Assembly: GCA_963666055.2 (NCBI GenBank) | Contig: CAXWPH010000009.1 | Coordinates: 17,227-81,226, forward strand | Direction of reading: 5' to 3' | DNA length: 64,000 nt | From: Acidobacteriota bacterium | GTDB taxonomy: Bacteria; Acidobacteriota; UBA890; WLXD01 | In this document: positions 7,654 to 38,773 of the stretch, in pieces | Position numbering within the stretch: position 1 is the stretch's first letter | Layout: each line of letters opens with the position of its first letter | The notes under the pieces: model-generated | What the model was told of the DNA's origin: nothing | The model's input: only the letters and a program-made list of their open reading frames with translations | Database searches by the model: none | Position numbers and translations under genes: made by a program

Positions 7654-8343
7654 TTGAAGTTGCGCTCGCTTCCCGCCGCTTTGCTGTTGATCGGGCTGGC
7701 GCTTGCGCCGAACGCAGCAAACGCATCGCCGGCAGGAAGCCTGATTCCACCGACGGCGGATGAGGAAAACAATCGACGCGGCGCCGGGACCGTCGGTCTG
7801 TTTGATCTTCAGCAGACCATCCGTCGCAGCGACCGGCCGCCTTCGGACCCGGTCGGTGGGTTCCAGATCAGCCTTATCGGAGCAGTGCAGATGCGTGGTT
7901 CGGCTTCAGGTCAGGCGGGTATCGCCTTCAGCTATTTCAAGCGCTCGACCGGCAACGTGGGCATCGAGTTCGAGGGCGGTATGACGCGCGGTCCCAACGG
8001 CCAGATCAACCACGGGCTGATCAGCTTCATCTTTCAGTCTGGCGGGCGGTCCAGCAAGCTAGCACCTTACCTGGCGGTGGGCGGCGGCATCTTTCATGCC
8101 AACGAGCGGTTGCGGGATCGGGTGGTCGAGGCGCTGCCAACGTTCGGTATCGAGCCGATGGAAGGGCTCGAGACGGGCCCGTTGATCGCCTTCGGGCTCG
8201 GCTTTCGCTTCTATCTTTCGGAGAAGGTATCTTTCCGCGCCGACTATCGGGAGATGAAGGCGATTACCAGTGGCAGCGGGAGTCTGTTCAACCGCCTCTT
8301 CTCGCTACGCCGCATCGGCGGATTCCTGTCGTTCCAGCTCTAG
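7654..8343 (+). CDS. outer-membrane beta-barrel protein (8-stranded OmpA-like)
   Basis: Signal peptide, PYLAVGGG, alternating strands GLGFRFYL and SFRADYR, C-terminal FLSFQL. Confidence 0.75.
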   Translation: MKLRSLPAALLLIGLALAPNAANASPAGSLIPPTADEENNRRGAGTVGLFDLQQTIRRSDRPPSDPVGGFQISLIGAVQMRGSASGQAGIAFSYFKRSTGNVGIEFEGGMTRGPNGQINHGLISFIFQSGGRSSKLAPYLAVGGGIFHANERLRDRVVEALPTFGIEPMEGLETGPLIAFGLGFRFYLSEKVSFRADYREMKAITSGSGSLFNRLFSLRRIGGFLSFQL

Positions 8344-8617
8344 TGGCCTGTAACAGATGATCGTTGCATATCGTGGTGGCGAAATGGGTCCGGATGCCAG
8401 GCGCGACGACGAGACGATGTTTGCCCATCGTGGAGGAGGAGCAACGCCGCAGACGGGCCGATTTCGCCGCCATCCTGCGGACAGATGGGCAGTTGCGGGC
8501 GATCTCGGCGTTGCGCCTCGTCGACGATGCCCATTGCATCGCCTTCCTCGCCGCGCCTTGATCTCACCCGCAAATCCCATCTGCGATATGTAACAATTAT
8601 CTGTTACAGGCCGCTAG
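8340..8617. mobile_element. MITE-like element (270 bp, 8344-8613) with 30-bp terminal inverted repeats and CTAG flanks
   Basis: Left end TGGCCTGTAACAGATGATCGTTGCATATCG vs reverse complement of right end CGGCCTGTAACAGATAATTGTTACATATCG (26/30); CTAG at 8340-8343 and 8614-8617; no transposase inside. Confidence 0.7.
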
Positions 8618-8654
8618 GGCCTGAGTCAGGACAATGGCAGGGTGTCCGCACCCG

Positions 8655-8785
8655 CAAGCGAAAGGCCGCCGGGCACCTGCCGGGCTAGCTCACCGGGTTC
8701 AGAGCGAGGGTCCCCTGTTTCCCCTTCCGTCCGACGTTGTCCCGGTTCCGCGAGCCAGCCCGACTGATGCCCGGCGGCCTCACGA
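8655..8785 (-). ncRNA. candidate sigma54-dependent small RNA (long hairpin, purine/GGA-rich loop)
   Basis: 8780-8750 pairs with 8693-8663 over 31 positions with one mismatch and four G-U pairs that only form on the minus strand; 56-nt loop with six GGA; starts just downstream of a -24/-12 promoter; ends are estimates. Confidence 0.6.
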
Positions 8786-8794
8786 CTCTCAAAG

Positions 8795-8811
8795 TGCAAG
8801 TATGATGCCAA
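8795..8811 (-). promoter_or_regulatory. sigma54 (-24/-12) promoter
   Basis: Minus strand TTGGCATCATACTTGCA vs consensus TGGCAC-N5-TTGCW, correct GG-N10-GC spacing. Confidence 0.8.
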
Positions 8812-8941: not shown

Positions 8942-8990
8942 CAACGGTGATCTGCGTTGCCTTCGACGGCGGGTCGACGACGCGGTGTGG

Positions 8991-10517
8991 TCAGCGTCGA
9001 TGCGTCGACGCCTCTGCCTCGGGCACGTCGATGCGGTGCCGGCGCAGCTTGTGGTACAGCGAAGTGCGCGGGATCCCCAGCACCTCAGCGGCTCGTGTCT
9101 TGTTGCCCTTCACCGCAGCGAGCACGCGACGAATATGCGCCGCGACAACGCTGTCGAGCTTGGCGTCGCCCAGATCAGCTTCCGACAGCGCCGCATTAGC
9201 GTCGACCATCGGCGCCTCTACTTTGCTCATCGACGCGCTGATCGCCGGCGGTAGATCCTCGACTAGGATCTGCGCCGACTCCGACAGCACCGCTGCACGA
9301 CGGACAGCGTTACGCAGCTCGCGCACGTTGCCCGGCCAATCGTAGCCGATCAGCGCTGCCGAGGCGTCGTCGCTGAACCCGGTCGGGCCGCGGCCATTCT
9401 CTTCCACGAAGTCACGTCGAAAGTGCTCGGCAAGCAGCGGGATGTCCTCGCGACGCTCGCGTAGCGCCGGTACGTGCAATCCGAAAACATTGAAGCGATA
9501 GTAGAGGTCCTCGCGAAAGGAACCCTCGTCGACCAACGTGCGGAGGTCCTGGTTGCTGGCCGCGATGAAACGCACGTCGACGCGTCGCGCACCGCGATCC
9601 TCCCCTACTTTCTGGATCTCCCCGTACTCCAGCGCGCGCAGAAGCATCACTTGCAATCGTGGGCTCATGGCCTCGAGCTCGTCGAGAAACAGTGTGCCGC
9701 CGTCGGCCAGCTCCATCTTGCCGGCCTTGTCCCGGTGTGCACCAGTGAAGGAGCCCCGGACATGCCCGAACAACTCGGATGCGAGGAGGTCGTCGGCGAA
9801 CGCGCCACAATTGACGATCATCAACTCGCGATCACGTCGCGGCGAGAAATAGTGCACCCCGTGGGCAAGGAGCTCCTTGCCCACGCCGCTCTCCCCGGTC
9901 ACAAGTACGGGCTCCTTGGTGGGCGCAACCCGTTTGACCAGCGCTTCGATGTCGCGAATCTGCTTCGAGATCCCGACAATCTCGACGTTGTAACCGCGGC
10001 GGCGAGAGTAACGCGTCAGCCACAAGCGTCCGATGACCATCGAGATGGCCTCGGCGAACTCCTCAAGCCGTTCCCGATGCTCGCGGGTATAGTGGCCGCG
10101 CTCCCGAGACTCGACCGATAACACGCCGATCGCCTCGCCCTGCAGCCGGATTGGAACCACCAGGTCGGCCTGTACATCCTTGAAGGCCGGGAAGTAGTAC
10201 GGGTCCTCGCTAACGTCGTTGGACATGTAGGTCTGGTTGTTGTGGTAGACCCACGTGATGATGCCAGGTGACTGGGTGTCGAGCTCCAGCAGGTTCGGAA
10301 GGTCGGCGAGCAACTCTCCTTTTTCGCGGTGGGCAATCAGCCGAACATCGCCGTCCTCGTTCTCCATCACGAAGATCGAACCGTAGTCGCTCTCGGTCAG
10401 CGTCTTGGCGAAGTCGACAAAATCCGCCAGCACAGGCTCGAGCACCTGGTCGCTGGAATAGACGTCGAGGCATACTTTCTGGAGAATGTCGCGCGACAGC
10501 GTATCGGATGTCGACAT
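8991..10517 (-). CDS. sigma54-dependent enhancer-binding protein (GAF-AAA+-Fis HTH)
   Basis: N-terminal GAF, GESGVGKE, ELFGHVRGSFTGA, FLDE, WPGNVREL, GNKTRAAEVLGI. Confidence 0.95.
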   Translation of the reverse strand: MSTSDTLSRDILQKVCLDVYSSDQVLEPVLADFVDFAKTLTESDYGSIFVMENEDGDVRLIAHREKGELLADLPNLLELDTQSPGIITWVYHNNQTYMSNDVSEDPYYFPAFKDVQADLVVPIRLQGEAIGVLSVESRERGHYTREHRERLEEFAEAISMVIGRLWLTRYSRRRGYNVEIVGISKQIRDIEALVKRVAPTKEPVLVTGESGVGKELLAHGVHYFSPRRDRELMIVNCGAFADDLLASELFGHVRGSFTGAHRDKAGKMELADGGTLFLDELEAMSPRLQVMLLRALEYGEIQKVGEDRGARRVDVRFIAASNQDLRTLVDEGSFREDLYYRFNVFGLHVPALRERREDIPLLAEHFRRDFVEENGRGPTGFSDDASAALIGYDWPGNVRELRNAVRRAAVLSESAQILVEDLPPAISASMSKVEAPMVDANAALSEADLGDAKLDSVVAAHIRRVLAAVKGNKTRAAEVLGIPRTSLYHKLRRHRIDVPEAEASTHRR

Positions 10518-10526
10518 GCGGTCATT

Positions 10527-11993
10527 CTATCTCGACTGCCCGACCGTCTCCGCGTCCGTGACGACAAGCGATAGCTGCTGCAGCTCCGGCGACCATCGCA
10601 AGCCCCAGGCGGCCGCAAAGTCGACACCGAGCACGGCCTGTGGTGCCACCCAGCTCGAGCCAGGAGGTGCACCAAACTGGGACTCGACTCGATAGATGTA
10701 TGGCGCCCCGAAACCACCGAGTCGGGTGGCGAGTATGACGCTCTCTGTGATCCGACGGTCGATCGGCTCGGCATCGTGTACGGTCGCCTGCACCAACCCA
10801 TCGTGGCTGATGCGTGACGGCCCCGACAGGTCGATGCTTGCCGCCACCCGTACCGTCAACAGTCGAGGAAACAACAGCAGCTGCGCCTCCAGCCCATCGA
10901 TGGGCACGCGTACATCGATCCAGTGCATTGCACGAGCCTTGGGCTCGCTCGACCACGGAGCATCGCTGATGGCCGACAAATCGAGGCGCGGCGGCCTGAT
11001 GACCATGCGATCCTCGCTGAGCCACAACTCCCAACCGAGCGTCGAGATAACGTCGAAACCGAGCTCGCCATCGGCGCCGTCCACCGCCTGCAGCACGAAT
11101 GGTACCGCCGCCGAAGTCACCCGGCCCAGCTCGACGGGCGCGACGGCGTGGCCGCCACTTTCCGGGTCGCCGTGGACGACCAGTCCGACCCGGCCGACCA
11201 ACTCGGGCGACAGCGTCGATCGCGGCGACTGAAGCGACAGTCTCAGGCGTGCCGTCGCGCCACCCATGCGGACAACAACGATCGGCGCACCCGCAGCATC
11301 ACGTTCCAACGGCACCGTCCCGGCAACGCCATTCCAAACGATCGCCGCCCCGCCGGAGTGCTGCGGCACGGTTGCCGCCGCCGCCGCCGCGGTCGCCAGT
11401 CGCGAGCGAGCGGCCGCATCTTCCGAAGCTTCGGCGGCGGCGCTCAAGTGCTGGGCCGCCGCGGTCGAATTCCCCTGTCGCCAGGCTAGCGCAGCCAGCA
11501 ACCGCAGCGCCCGGGCTCGCGTCCGTTGGTCGGTTGCGAGCTGCTCGGCCAGCGATCTCGCCTCATCGAGCCGCCCGAGGGCAGCGGCGGCGCGGGCTAG
11601 CCCGAGCATCCCCTCCGATGACCCCGATCCCGCAGCACGACGAAAGAAGCTCTCAGCTTCGAGCAGTTCGCCAGAGCGCCACAGCGCCCGTCCGAGCCAA
11701 CTCCAAGATTCAGGTCCCGGGGCGCGACGTTCGTACAACCTTGCCCTGGTCAGCGCGGCGGTGATCTCGCCGGCGTCCAGAAGCTGACGCATTTCGGACT
11801 GAACCAAGATCGCCGGGCTGTCGATACCGGGTCCGGCTCCCGCACAGCCCCAAGTCCCGACAACAAGCGCCGCCCGTCCGAGCGAGCTCAATGACCACGT
11901 CAGGGGGCGTAAAAGCCGGCCCAGCCCACTTCTGTCGCCTCGGGATCCGATGCTATGATCTGCGCTGGAAGGGAGGCATATGAAGATCGACAA
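10527..11993 (-). CDS. TPR plus degenerate twin retropepsin-like protein, possible lipoprotein (true start probably near 11.9 kb)
   Basis: Ala-rich TPR-like helices, DGELGFD and AVLGVD motifs, possible lipobox TWGC. Confidence 0.55.
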   Translation of the reverse strand: MSIFICLPSSADHSIGSRGDRSGLGRLLRPLTWSLSSLGRAALVVGTWGCAGAGPGIDSPAILVQSEMRQLLDAGEITAALTRARLYERRAPGPESWSWLGRALWRSGELLEAESFFRRAAGSGSSEGMLGLARAAAALGRLDEARSLAEQLATDQRTRARALRLLAALAWRQGNSTAAAQHLSAAAEASEDAAARSRLATAAAAAATVPQHSGGAAIVWNGVAGTVPLERDAAGAPIVVVRMGGATARLRLSLQSPRSTLSPELVGRVGLVVHGDPESGGHAVAPVELGRVTSAAVPFVLQAVDGADGELGFDVISTLGWELWLSEDRMVIRPPRLDLSAISDAPWSSEPKARAMHWIDVRVPIDGLEAQLLLFPRLLTVRVAASIDLSGPSRISHDGLVQATVHDAEPIDRRITESVILATRLGGFGAPYIYRVESQFGAPPGSSWVAPQAVLGVDFAAAWGLRWSPELQQLSLVVTDAETVGQSR

Positions 11994-12898: not shown

Positions 12899-13062
12899 AG
12901 TTCGCCCCCACCCGGTGTCGGTTGCCCCCCAACCGACACGAGCACGCTATCGTTGTAATCGGCGTTTGGCAACCGGTTGGCGCGACCATTTGCGCCCTTT
13001 CGGCTGCCTCCCTATACTTACTCGCCTATCTTGTCGCTAACGTTTCTTCAGCCCTCGAGACG

Positions 13063-13587
13063 ATGGACTCCGCGCCTACCCAGCGCCCGCGCAAGTTGCG
13101 GCCGACCGACGTGCTCAAGCACGAGCACCGACAGATAGAAGAACGCCTGCAGGTGCTGTCGTCGGCCCTGAAATCGCTCCGTAACCAGGGGTCGGATGCC
13201 GAGATCCTCGACCGGATCGAGGAGGTGGCGCAGTACATCGATCGCGAGATGGCGGTACATCATCGCAAGGAAGAGGAAGGGCTCTTCCCGTTGCTGGCAC
13301 GCTACCTTGACGAGGATCTCCACCTAGACGGCCGCATCGCTGATCACGAAGACCTCAAGATCATGAGCGGCAAGTTCAAGCAAACGCTCGAGGAATGCCG
13401 CAGCACCAACGATCATTTCGCCGCCCAGATGTTGAGGGGTTACGGCCTCTACATCGTCCATCTCGTGCTCGAGCATCTGCTCAAAGAGGATGAGATTCTC
13501 TTCCTGGTTGCCGACCGCTATCTCAGCGACGAGCAAGAGGACGAGATCTTGCGGCGGTTCGGCGAGATCGAAGCGGCCGTTTCCTGA
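13063..13587 (+). CDS. hemerythrin-domain protein
   Basis: LKHEH, HHRKEEEGLFP, DHE, EHLLKEDEILF. Confidence 0.88.
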   Translation: MDSAPTQRPRKLRPTDVLKHEHRQIEERLQVLSSALKSLRNQGSDAEILDRIEEVAQYIDREMAVHHRKEEEGLFPLLARYLDEDLHLDGRIADHEDLKIMSGKFKQTLEECRSTNDHFAAQMLRGYGLYIVHLVLEHLLKEDEILFLVADRYLSDEQEDEILRRFGEIEAAVS

Positions 13588-13652
13588 TCGGAACCGTCAC
13601 CCGTCTCCCCTTCTCTATCGATTCCTCGGACCCCGTGCCTTGTGTCGCGTCG

Positions 13653-13692
13653 TCTCTATGGATACCATACCCCCCTATGGTATCTATAGAGA
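13653..13692. promoter_or_regulatory. CsoR/RcnR-type operator
   Basis: tctctatggATACCATA-CCCCCC-TATGGTATctatagaga: inverted repeat around a C-tract, directly upstream of csoR. Confidence 0.85.
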
Positions 13693-13716
13693 CCTCCCGG
13701 AGCAGCGTGACACACG

Positions 13717-14001
13717 ATGAGTAGTCCTCCCCACGGAGCGCCGCATCACGACGAGATCCGTCGGCTGCGCCGCATCGAAGGGCAGATCCGAGGTCTGCAG
13801 CGAATGATCGACGACGATCGATACTGTATCGACATCCTTACTCAGATACGTTCCGCCCAGCGCGCCCTGCAGCGTGTGAACGATTCGATCCTCGAGCGTC
13901 ATTTGCTCCACTGCGTAGTACAGGCGGCAGAGAGCGGCAGCGAGCGTGTACGCGATGAGCGCGTGCGCGAGGTAATGCAAGTGCTGGAGCGTGGGCGGTG
14001 A
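13717..14001 (+). CDS. csoR: copper-sensing repressor CsoR
   Basis: [25 protein letters not shown] (Cys-His-Cys ligands). Confidence 0.92.
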
Positions 14002-16250
14002 GCGTGGTAGGTGCCACCGTCCGCACTTTGCCGGTACGCGGCATGCACTGTGCCTCCTGCGCCGGTAACGTGGCCCGGGTACTGCAGGCTCTGCCGGGCG
14101 TGAACGATGCGACCGTCAACCTGGCGACCGAAAGAGTTCGCGTGGAATTTGACGCCAGCGACGTTGAGCTGTCCACCCTGGCGGAGGCAGTGTCATCCGC
14201 CGGCTTCGAGCTTGTTACAGAGCCCGCGATCGCGACCTCCTCCGCTGCCGAAGCCAGCACTCCGGCAGCGCTACGCGAGGCCCAGGGACGCGTCTTCTTC
14301 GCCTGGTTGTTCACGCTGCCGATCATGCTGATCATGGCGGGCAGCTGGGCATTCGGCAGCCCCTGGCCCGATCCGTTACTGCACAAGCTGCTGATGCTGG
14401 TGTTGGCGCTTCCGGTACTGTTCGTCGTCGGCATCGAGACGCTGTCTAGTGCGATGGCGGCGGTTCGTCGTCGCAGCCCCAACATGGATGTGCTCATCGC
14501 GCTAGGCACAATGGCGGCCTACGCTACCGGGCTGCTGGCCCTGTTCACGCCGATCGCCAGCTTCTCGGGCATCGCGGCGATGATCATGGCTTTCCACCTG
14601 ACGGGTCGGTACATCGAAACCAAGGCCAGGGGCCGCGCCTCAGACGCGATCCGACGATTGATCGAGCTGGGCGCCAAGAGTGCGCGCATCGAGGTGGACG
14701 GACAGGAGCGGGAGGTGGGCATCGAAGACGTCGGGGTCGGCGACATCATGGTCGTCAGGCCGGGCGAGCGCGTGCCTACGGACGGCGTCGTCGTCGCAGG
14801 AAGCAGCGCCATCGACGAGTCCATGGCAACGGGAGAGCCGCTGCCGGTCGTCAAGCAACCGGGCGATGAGGTCATCGGTGCAACGCTCAACCAGCGTGGC
14901 CGCTTGCGGGTGCGCGCCACGCGCATCGGCGGCGATACTTTTCTGGCGCAGGTGATCCAGCTGGTCGAGCAATGTCAGTCGACGAGGGTTCCGATTCAGC
15001 TACTCGCCGACCGCGTGACTGCCGTGTTCGTCCCCGCGTCGCTGTTGATCGCGTCGCTCACGTTCATCGCCTGGGTGGTCGCACCGGGGCCCCTCGGCAC
15101 CGTGGCGCGCGCCGCAGCAGCCGTATTCCCCTGGGTGAACCCGGATCTGGGTGTCGTCTCGCTGGCCGTGTTCGCCGCCGTCGCCGTGCTAGTCATCGCC
15201 TGCCCCTGCGCTCTCGGCCTCGCCACCCCGACGGCGCTGATGGTGGGAACCGGACGCGCCGCGGAGAACGGTATCCTCTTCCGCTCCGGAGCGGCGCTGC
15301 AAGCCCTGGTGGACGCCGACGTGATCGCCTTCGACAAGACCGGCACGTTGACCGCCGGCAGCACTCAGCTGACCGGCATGACCGTCACGCCGGGCTACGA
15401 TGAGAACGAGGTTCTGAGGCTGGCCGCGGCGGTAGAAGACGCCTCGGAACACCCGCTGGCCGCGGCGGTTGTCGACGCCGCACGCGCACGCGGGCTCGAT
15501 CTCCCGCCCGCCGACCATTTCGAGGCCATTGTCGGCCGCGGCGTGGTAGCTCGAGCGCTCGACAGAGAGATCGTCGTCGGGAGCCCGATCATGATGCTCG
15601 AGCGCGGCATCGCGCTCGGGGCGCTAGAGACCGAGGCGACTCGGGTGGAGAACGCCGCCGAGACCGCCATCGCTGTGGCTATCGACGGGAAGTTAGCCGG
15701 ATTGCTGGCGATCAGTGATCCGCTCAAGGACGATTCCGCGGCGGCGATCGCGCAGTTGCGCCAGCTCGGCCTCGAGCCGTTGATGCTTACCGGTGATAAC
15801 GAGCGCACCGCCCGCGCGATCGCCGCGCGAGTCGGCATTACCGAAGTGGAAGCTGGCTTGCTGCCCGACACCAAGTTGGAATGGATTCGTCGGCGTCAAG
15901 AGGACGGCCAGAAGGTCGTCATGGTGGGCGACGGAATCAACGACGCCCCCGCTCTCACCCAAGCTGACGTCGGCGTCGCCATCGGCACCGGCACCGACAT
16001 CGCCATCGAGGCGGCCGACGTCACCGTGGTGCACGGCGATCTCGATTCTGTCGTTCGCGCCGTGCGAATCGCCCGTCGGACGTTTACGATCATCCGCCAG
16101 AATCTGTTCTGGGCTTTCTTCTACAACATCGTGGCCGTGCCTATCGCCGTGCTCGGATTGCTACATCCGGTCATTGCCGAGATGGCGATGGCGCTGTCGT
16201 CGTTAACGGTCGTTGCCAACGCGCTGCGTCTGCGGCAACAGAGCTTCTGA
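13998..16250 (+). CDS. copA: Cu(I)-translocating P1B-type ATPase
   Basis: GMHCASC HMA domain, [32 protein letters not shown]. Confidence 0.95.
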
Positions 16251-38277: not shown

Positions 38278-38496
38278 CTAGCGCTCGCCCCAGTTGGCCT
38301 GCGAAGCAAACGTATCGGTGTCCAGCGACATGCTGGCGTTACGCTCGAGATATGACCGCACGTCGCTTTCGCGATAGCGGATCTGCCCGCGAACGCGGCC
38401 AAACGGCAAGCGGCCCTCCTTGCGCTCGCGACGGATCGTCCGCGGCGAGACCTGGAGCAGCTCTGCGAGCGTCTCGGTGGTGTAAAGCTTCTGCAC
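38278..38496 (-). CDS. excisionase/BldC-like HTH protein (first gene after the sigma54 promoter)
   Basis: GGGGAG RBS, GTG start; YTTETLAELLQVSPRTIRRERKEGRLPFGRVRGQIRYRESDV. Confidence 0.85.
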   Translation of the reverse strand: MQKLYTTETLAELLQVSPRTIRRERKEGRLPFGRVRGQIRYRESDVRSYLERNASMSLDTDTFASQANWGER

Positions 38497-38571
38497 GGTT
38501 GCGTACTCCCCTGTTGGCGGGTTTCGCCTCGTTTCGGTAGGCGCCGAGCCGAACTCGACACCCGAGGAGGG

Positions 38572-38588
38572 AGCAATCGCCGTGCCAA
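38572..38588 (-). promoter_or_regulatory. sigma54 (-24/-12) promoter of the HTH/pilin operon
   Basis: Minus strand TTGGCACGGCGATTGCT, a full match to TGGCAC-N5-TTGCW. Confidence 0.9.
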
Positions 38589-38773
38589 ACTCGGCCGCGC
38601 CTCGTACGAGGCCACCGAACGCAGTCCGCTGTTTCTTCATAAGTCACTGCAACAAAAGCGTTTATCGAATACTAGCGGTGCTCTACAGTGCTGGTAGCGT
38701 CTCCCCCGTCCGCCCGTACATTACGTCGATCGGAACTGACTGGGACACCGTAACTCACTGATATCAAAAGGTT

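Follow-up and report, generated by a model that had tools for sequence, protein, structure and literature searches.

A conserved hairpin behind a sigma54 promoter and its sister elements: a predicted small RNA family with a G-rich loop in one Acidobacteriota-labelled order

What is made from a sigma54 promoter that lies 180 bp past the stop codon of an enhancer-binding protein gene and points at no credible open reading frame? The question is posed by a locus in a 64-kb window (the whole stretch of DNA that was analysed, 64,000 nucleotides) of an Acidobacteriota genome, at which the initial annotation had placed a candidate sigma54-dependent small RNA. The promoter is as described there, with the sequence TTGGCA-N6-TTGCA and the activator stop at 8991. 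The features of the locus, in window coordinates, are as follows.

7654-8343, plus strand: convergent gene with a weak outer-membrane beta-barrel match (PF13505, E 0.0025, below cut-off)
8337-8620, no strand: MITE bounded by terminal inverted repeats of 37 nt, inserted at the CTAG where the convergent gene stops
8655-8784, minus strand: predicted small RNA gene of about 125-130 nt (class A), with predicted ends
8662-8691, minus strand: 3' arm of the outer stem P1, pairing with 8781-8752
8702-8732, minus strand: nearly invariant apex (GGACG helix strand, GAAGGGG, loop, CCCU, CGCUC)
8711-8721, minus strand: apical loop of 11 nt, predicted unpaired, ending in GGGGA (8715-8711)
8752-8781, minus strand: 5' arm of P1, from alignment and covariation
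8795-8811, minus strand: sigma54 -24/-12 promoter TTGGCA-N6-TTGCA, kept in 35/35 homologues
8965-9009, no strand: three tandem dyads GWCS-N6-SGWC (9009-8996, 8992-8979 and 8978-8965), candidate activator sites
8991-10517, minus strand: GAF-AAA+-HTH sigma54 enhancer-binding protein of 508 aa, of an order-restricted subfamily
10527-11993, minus strand: gene with TPRs, upstream of the activator and in conserved synteny throughout the order; its start codon is uncertain

The predicted +1 (8784/8783) was placed from the -12 C of the promoter at 8796, and the 3' end from the end of the stem and a short U-rich tail.

The conserved hairpin spans 8662-8781 on the minus strand and is single-copy in the 5.7-Mb genome. 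P1 has 30 positions, rather than the 31 first counted, with the one mismatch (A-A) and the four G-U pairs initially described. Likewise, the supposed purine-rich loop does carry six GGA triplets, but it is an interior of 60 nt rather than 56 nt and is folded into a 6-bp helix, an irregular helix and a 4-bp helix, followed by the 11-nt apical loop, with a single GGA-bearing loop exposed. This loop reads A(n)CAGGGGA and has a predicted unpaired probability of 0.82-1.0. For the predicted minus-strand transcript of 129 nt the folding energy is -84.9 kcal/mol (z -6.66; 0/200 shuffles as good) and for the plus strand -66.6 (z -4.38); the sense strand folds better than the antisense in 32/35 class A homologues. 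The conserved core has indels of 3, 4 and 5 nt in its linkers, which exclude a reading frame, and there is no common start codon, so that a small ORF was rejected and the promoter indeed points at no credible ORF.

Of 25 order relatives, 18 have an orthologue of the GAF-AAA+ activator, and these are also the ones with the hairpin; the seven with neither are 55-88% complete. A metagenome scan gave 23 matches, which after removal of five duplicates and two chance matches in coding regions (L058 and L062, without promoter or stem) left 16 distinct class A copies and brought the total to 35; 12 further contig matches are duplicates of loci already counted. On the 35-row alignment 98.1% of cells are paired; for P1, with 22 pairs, the figure is 97.5%, and 11 of these pairs have changed on both sides. 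The class A alignment contains 91 double changes compared with 30.8 in shuffles (0/500 reach 91), a test that is inflated by relatedness; the slide control is free of that flaw, and in it pairing falls to 30-48%. The apex of ~30 nt is nearly invariant among homologues. A class A model recognised 11/12 order genomes and, with strict filters, 0/139 other genomes of the phylum. The promoter is kept before the hairpin in 35/35 homologues and the stem covaries, which the initial annotation had suggested testing in the regions behind orthologous activators. Its view that the family is an unrecognised one is borne out by Rfam, which gave no gathering match in the 64-kb window; at the locus there were only miRNA-precursor matches far below threshold. 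Neither the class A nor the class B core (class B is described below) matched viral contigs, and plasmids and phages gave no match. In 401 phylum genomes a loose core pattern matched about as often as its control did, and is uninformative. One outgroup, G047, contributes a single row to the activator search, the loose-core scan and the TCCCC comparison below, and no claim hangs on it alone.

Thus, the covariation, invariant apex and promoter establish, at the level of sequence, class A as a real conserved structured non-coding element. Contigs assembled from sequencing runs bear on transcription. A relative's contig from RNA run X2 covers 8659-8773 at depth 3.7, and one from RNA run X3 covers 8682-8762 at depth 2 and extends beyond the predicted start; both are insufficient to establish transcription. 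A relative's contig from run X4, whose RNA status is a guess, covers the element, whilst no contig covered it in run X1, labelled as the same species, or on mapping onto an f2 homologue. We regard class A as very probably a transcribed, trans-acting RNA, of a kind that is known but of a family and motif that are new, and confined to one Acidobacteriota-labelled order.

The control region is also conserved. TGGCA-N6-TTGC sits 73-90 nt before the core in 35/35 distinct class A homologues, and the strict form TGGCAY-N5-TTGC has only 14 matches in the 5.7-Mb genome, in which rpoN is present. Tandem dyads of the form GWCS-N6-SGWC lie 100-250 bp upstream in 33/33 homologues (2/35 were left out as having too little upstream DNA). 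There are 91 matches in the 33/33 upstream regions against 8.1 ± 3.0 in 300 shuffles, and six downstream, for a motif derived from the same related sequences that were scored. The motif scores with spacers of 9 (66) and 12 (41) as well, probably as a result of the tandem arrangement. The first dyad lies within the last codons of the activator gene, and the DNA dyad is kept despite residue changes. The activator is a likely ligand of the dyads and, from established sigma54 biology, would drive the class A promoter. Its subfamily comprises 65 proteins at E<=1e-100, all at least 63% identical; the best matches outside the order are ~50% identical over part of the length. Identity with NorR or NifA was rejected, every NCBIfam score being far below cut-off, and its GAF domain gives weak GAF matches only.

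The succession of activator, promoter and RNA noted initially holds as a linkage of promoter and activator, but the same-strand order is not invariant. Three of 19 genomes (genus g3) and three metagenome copies have the activator gene flipped where it stands, with the TPR gene on one side and the RNA promoter on the other, yet promoter and dyads remain with the hairpin (L008-L010, L049, L054, L055). What is invariant is the promoter with its upstream dyads, not an activator followed by an RNA on one strand. In the inverted form the first dyad falls just before the activator's start codon, a possible autoregulation. Among 56 dyad clusters in a regulon scan, only the class A locus has a strict sigma54 promoter. 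Two other places are possible further activator sites: a single dyad before a sigma54-like motif (C5:3030) and a 17-spaced dyad pair without strict promoter (C10:161367).

The surroundings are less constant. The convergent gene adjoins class A in family f1 and is ~1 kb away in most f2 genomes; in f1 the next same-strand gene downstream of class A is 6.9 kb away. The genome has nine nearly complete copies of the MITE at >=90%, besides many diverged relatives, and in G002 the corresponding site is empty; an origin of the RNA from the MITE was rejected, the two having no common core. Further upstream in the window (12922-16250) are a hemerythrin-domain gene, syntenic with the activator in 5/7 relatives examined, a CsoR/RicR-like repressor and a copper P-type ATPase. 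A near-identical duplicated sigma54-type promoter with a small helix-turn-helix gene, excisionase-like by appearance, occurs at window ~38300-38590 (C9:55813, minus strand) and at C15:535926.

The same genome carries three sister modules with the core GGACGUAAAGGGGAGCGG at two other loci (two in tandem at C7, one at C10), found via other intergenic sigma54 promoters; the initial annotation had missed that the element is one of a multi-copy family. A strict apex descriptor has 23 matches in the genome, seven of them in long hairpins, and the four that are intergenic are class A and the three sisters. When 1504 intergenic GGGGA sites and several thousand related G-rich sites were put through a long-hairpin test, the only ones to pass were these modules and one unrelated repeat. 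The sister loci, and those of a further class, D, are listed below.

C7:88938-88700, minus strand: sigma54 promoter and two tandem class B modules (B2), by an ABC ATPase gene (L101/L119)
C10:160683-160792, plus strand: class B1 module behind an ECF-like element, then a gene for a 113-aa protein (L118/L120)
L170:1694-1999, L173, L182, L187, L189 and L196: class D loci of family f2

Class B is order-wide (95% paired, 102 double changes against 40.9), and its model, which recognised 12/12 order genomes and 0/139 others, led to classes C and D in family f2. Three of the 34 matches of the class B pattern search (L097, L098, L115) have no hairpin and were dropped. The distinct copies number 35 for class A, 30 for B, four for B2 in f2, 10 for C and 6+2 for D. 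Rfam gave no match for B2, which is tandem in several f1 genomes and single in others and in f2, and which comes after the ABC gene in f1 and before it in f2. Class C lies before a membrane-fusion-protein gene on the same strand. At the class D loci the hairpin that bears GGGGAGCGG precedes a small one whose loop is C-rich (CCCUCCCUC), and a second module often lies ~230 nt downstream. The gene always found behind B1 is order-restricted, has four more paralogues in the genome and in some genomes its own sigma54 promoter; the all-helical 113-aa product has no Pfam match and no Foldseek match at E<=0.001 (best VIA, Z 6.0; model pLDDT 80.5).

The inputs to these elements differ. Twelve of the 30 class B copies stand behind a sigma54 promoter and 13 behind an AAACT...CGTC element, which we take to be ECF-like, whilst class C has neither. 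The main text of PMC7826278 does not give such an ECF-like motif. The one motif common to all classes is GGGGA at the 3' end of the loop, predicted unpaired with a mean of 0.58-1.0. All classes also have a GCYRGC-type duplex in the outer stem; the outer stems of C and D are much shorter, and the 5' side of their apical helix differs. The linear GGGGAGCGG persists throughout classes B-D even though the strand that pairs with it on the 5' side changes; class A is without the GCGG that comes after GGGGA in B-D. Classes A and B have a GGACG/CGSYC helix in common, including a mismatch that never varies. The class B model scores 19.3 and 16.4 bits on class A, on the sense strand only, and the class A model scores 31.8 bits sense against 21.8 antisense on B1, over the outer stem only. 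From these weak cross-matches, the architecture, the common helix and the A-rich-then-GGGGA loop, A and B appear likely to be related.

Which known system might the family belong to? The initial annotation favoured a sponge for CsrA/RsmA proteins, and this is not supported. Among the 26 order genomes we found no csrA (PF02599; 0/26, and 0/12 at >=90% complete, with positive controls detected), no hfq (0/26) and no Ro60/TROVE (PF05731; 0/26). CsrA-sponge, CrcZ and Y-RNA models therefore fail; a likeness of the class A stem to bacterial Y RNA had been a lead only. Like class A, CsrB/CsrC and RsmY/Z have purine-rich GGA loops and several paralogues, but they carry many ANGGA hairpins, whereas the class A family has one G-rich loop per module in a host without csrA; ANGGA is single in 27/35 class A homologues and missing in 3/35. 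The exposed loop also misfits the CsrA consensus given in PMC7652899, an ANGGAN hexaloop and RUACARGGAUGU. As described for Pseudomonas CrcZ/CrcY, an activator gene is followed by an RpoN promoter and an sRNA with paralogous copies (PMC5113210); CrcZ sequesters Hfq/Crc, whereas no hfq was found in the class A order, structure and motif differ and there is no Rfam match.

Myxococcus Pxr, too, has a sigma54 promoter that immediately follows the gene of an enhancer-binding protein, and the RNA occurs as long and short forms (PMC5684412); like class A it is clade-restricted in a host without Hfq (PMC5684412; 10.1101/2025.09.11.675593). It differs in having three stem-loops and an NtrC-like two-component regulator (pxrR/nla19), where class A has one long hairpin and a GAF one-component activator. 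The Pxr covariance model gave no match at class A, where only miRNA-precursor noise far below gathering was seen; we take the Pxr family to be RF01812. The gene glmY is under sigma54 control. GlmY and GlmZ are homologous structured sRNAs, one of which may be a decoy (PMC13501541); class A has no sequence or Rfam match to them. In Listeria, LhrC1-5, Rli22 and Rli33-1 are siblings of 105-121 nt that occur in tandem arrays and pair independently of Hfq through a loop motif (PMC8079631). Multiple copies, tandem arrangement, a loop-exposed motif, variable flanks and control by several regulators are features that they have in common with classes A-D (PMC8079631). The motif displayed by LhrC is UCCC, which pairs with AG-rich Shine-Dalgarno regions, whereas the class A-D loop is GGGGA on one long 5'/3' stem; there is no sequence similarity (no Rfam match).

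Class A has no central bubble and no RF00013 match, and identity with 6S RNA was rejected; RF00013 has no match anywhere in the genome. The usual position of 6S RNA is after zapA, and the gap after zapA here (L121, C1) contains a hairpin with a central bubble, with a z of only -0.87 for the window folded. Identity with SRP RNA was also rejected, the SRP RNA of the genome (RF00169) being elsewhere, on C15.

Our preferred reading, to which we give a probability of about 0.45, is that class A works by Hfq-independent pairing of its G-loop with C-rich RNA sites, as a mirror of LhrC. The neighbouring GAF activator, once switched on, would bind the dyads and drive the class A promoter; the long 5'/3' stem would protect both RNA ends and present the loop. 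The GGGGA loop would contact UCCCC-type elements, whether in C-rich leader hairpins, anti-Shine-Dalgarno arms or C-rich sRNAs, and the loop-loop contact would then extend into flanking bases, which are class-specific and might set the choice of target. The sisters would feed different signals into the one motif, through two or three sigma54 inputs, the ECF-like promoter and another upstream motif. We favour pairing because the linear motif is kept while its cis partner drifts, because the flanks are class-specific and because LhrC is a precedent without Hfq: retention of GGGGAGCGG in B-D with a changing 5' partner is as expected of a seed read as sequence, and the absence of hfq, csrA and Ro60 removes the known sponge partners.

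Targets were sought in several ways. The class A apex scanned against 4891 predicted 5' regions gave no clear outlier (best -50.1, mean -30.8, SD 4.2) and no clean contiguous site, and apex complements were not enriched in 3466 leaders. The single GGTCCCCTG leader site of the genome itself is kept in 1/7 homologues examined; for class B, 0/6 of the G012 leader sites of CCGCTCCCC are kept in the source genome. TCCCC is the top 5-mer 20-45 nt before start codons (93 compared with 50.9, duplicates removed), and was rejected as specific evidence: a dinucleotide shuffle gives 97.7, it is equally common in outgroups and the excess is due to local C-richness. The TCCCC:CCCCT ratio is 1.2-1.6 in three order genomes and 1.3-2.2 in three others. 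A gene for a PQQ-type beta-propeller has TCCCC before its start in the source genome and in 4/5 orthologues, which we treat as a lead only.

The best target lead is a kinase leader, and it applies to class B. Dozens of paralogous kinase genes have leader hairpins of the form GGCGCUC / C-rich loop / (G/U)AGCGCC-AUG that bury a Shine-Dalgarno-like arm, and the 5' arm and C-rich loop are complementary to the class B motif GGGGAGCG. Many pair with class B at -13 to -16 kcal/mol against a background of -10.1 ± 2.6, a post hoc comparison on paralogous copies in one lineage that amounts to about one observation. Class A does not match this lead, its loop being near background (-13.3 versus -12.1 ± 3.3), and one of two G012 kinase starts examined has such a site. 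The Ser/Thr kinase-like family is itself expanded, with 83 tblastn matches including internal starts (e.g. C13:51259, C14:403158, C15:2110172); its true starts have a common TAGGCT element and a short C-rich-loop leader hairpin ending right at the AUG.

The paired residues of the class A apex are invariant as well, which pairing alone would not require. This is where a protein decoy, a possibility that we consider somewhat doubtful, does better: an AGGGGA loop resembling a Shine-Dalgarno sequence, held on a defined helix, would titrate a non-CsrA RNA-binding repressor or a nuclease adaptor, and sisters and tandem modules would sum signals as in CsrB/CsrC, CrcZ/CrcY and GlmY. It accounts better than pairing for invariant paired residues (both strands of the apical helices never vary, including the mismatch in the helix of A and B, and the GCYRGC-type duplex recurs in every class) and for the two tandem B2 modules of several f1 genomes. 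GGGGA and GGGGAG occupy the ribosome-binding position of 126 and 67 of 4891 predicted genes, the duplex and leader scans found no conserved RNA target and the layout is like that described for cbrB-crcZ (PMC5113210). It lacks, however, a candidate protein: csrA, hfq and Ro60 are absent (0/26), there is only one RRM gene and the 113-aa protein beside B1 is without recognisable fold. One loop per module makes for few sponge sites, the 108 genes with N-GGGGA near the start have no common operator hairpin, and C and D depart from the other classes on the 5' side of the apical helix.

Another reading makes the RNA a precursor whose stem is an RNase III substrate and whose active product is shorter, either the apex once cut free or a C-rich 3' strand such as CCCUCGCUC, which would serve as an anti-Shine-Dalgarno seed. 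This is improbable: B1, B2 and C have no C-rich element and the outer stems of C and D are much shorter, to be set against a near-perfect stem of ~30 bp, an RNase III gene in the genome, the invariance of CCCUCGCUC in class A, the downstream C-rich-loop hairpin of class D and the long and short forms reported for Pxr behind its sigma54 activator (PMC5684412). Least probable is that the hairpins do not act in trans at all but are cis leaders, terminators or DNA-level palindromes. B1 and C do precede genes on the same strand (those for the 113-aa protein and the membrane-fusion protein), some stems are followed by a short U-rich tail and the class A transcript is only predicted, but class A in f1 has no near same-strand gene downstream (the next is at 6.9 kb), B2 changes sides of the ABC gene between f1 and f2 and each hairpin has its own promoter. 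The G-U-rich strand bias, and for class A the single copy, unlike a MITE, also speak against it.

We found no description of this hairpin family in the literature covered, which excludes subscription journals, and no trans-acting regulatory small RNA of Acidobacteriota; a search for Acidobacteria noncoding RNA gave nadA only. The main text of 10.64898/2026.10.21.760802 mentions neither Acidobacteria nor sigma54, and its supplements could list class A as an unnamed cluster.

Read from sequence, the class A locus offers a complete testable circuit: an activator, dyads, a sigma54 promoter and a structured RNA, along with sisters that respond to other inputs. The lineage is one in which the searches for Hfq and CsrA were negative. 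Whereas the usual anti-Shine-Dalgarno seed is C-rich, the loop of this family is G-rich, the reverse. Tentatively, and with more doubt than assurance, the at least five sibling hairpin loci, under different sigma54 activators and an ECF-like promoter, might form an order-wide post-transcriptional network of undescribed type, in which a Shine-Dalgarno mimic opens C-rich leader hairpins and so turns translation on, or else sequesters some global repressor, so far undiscovered, that stands in for CsrA and Hfq. Either partner, a C-rich RNA or a novel protein, would be a new regulatory part.
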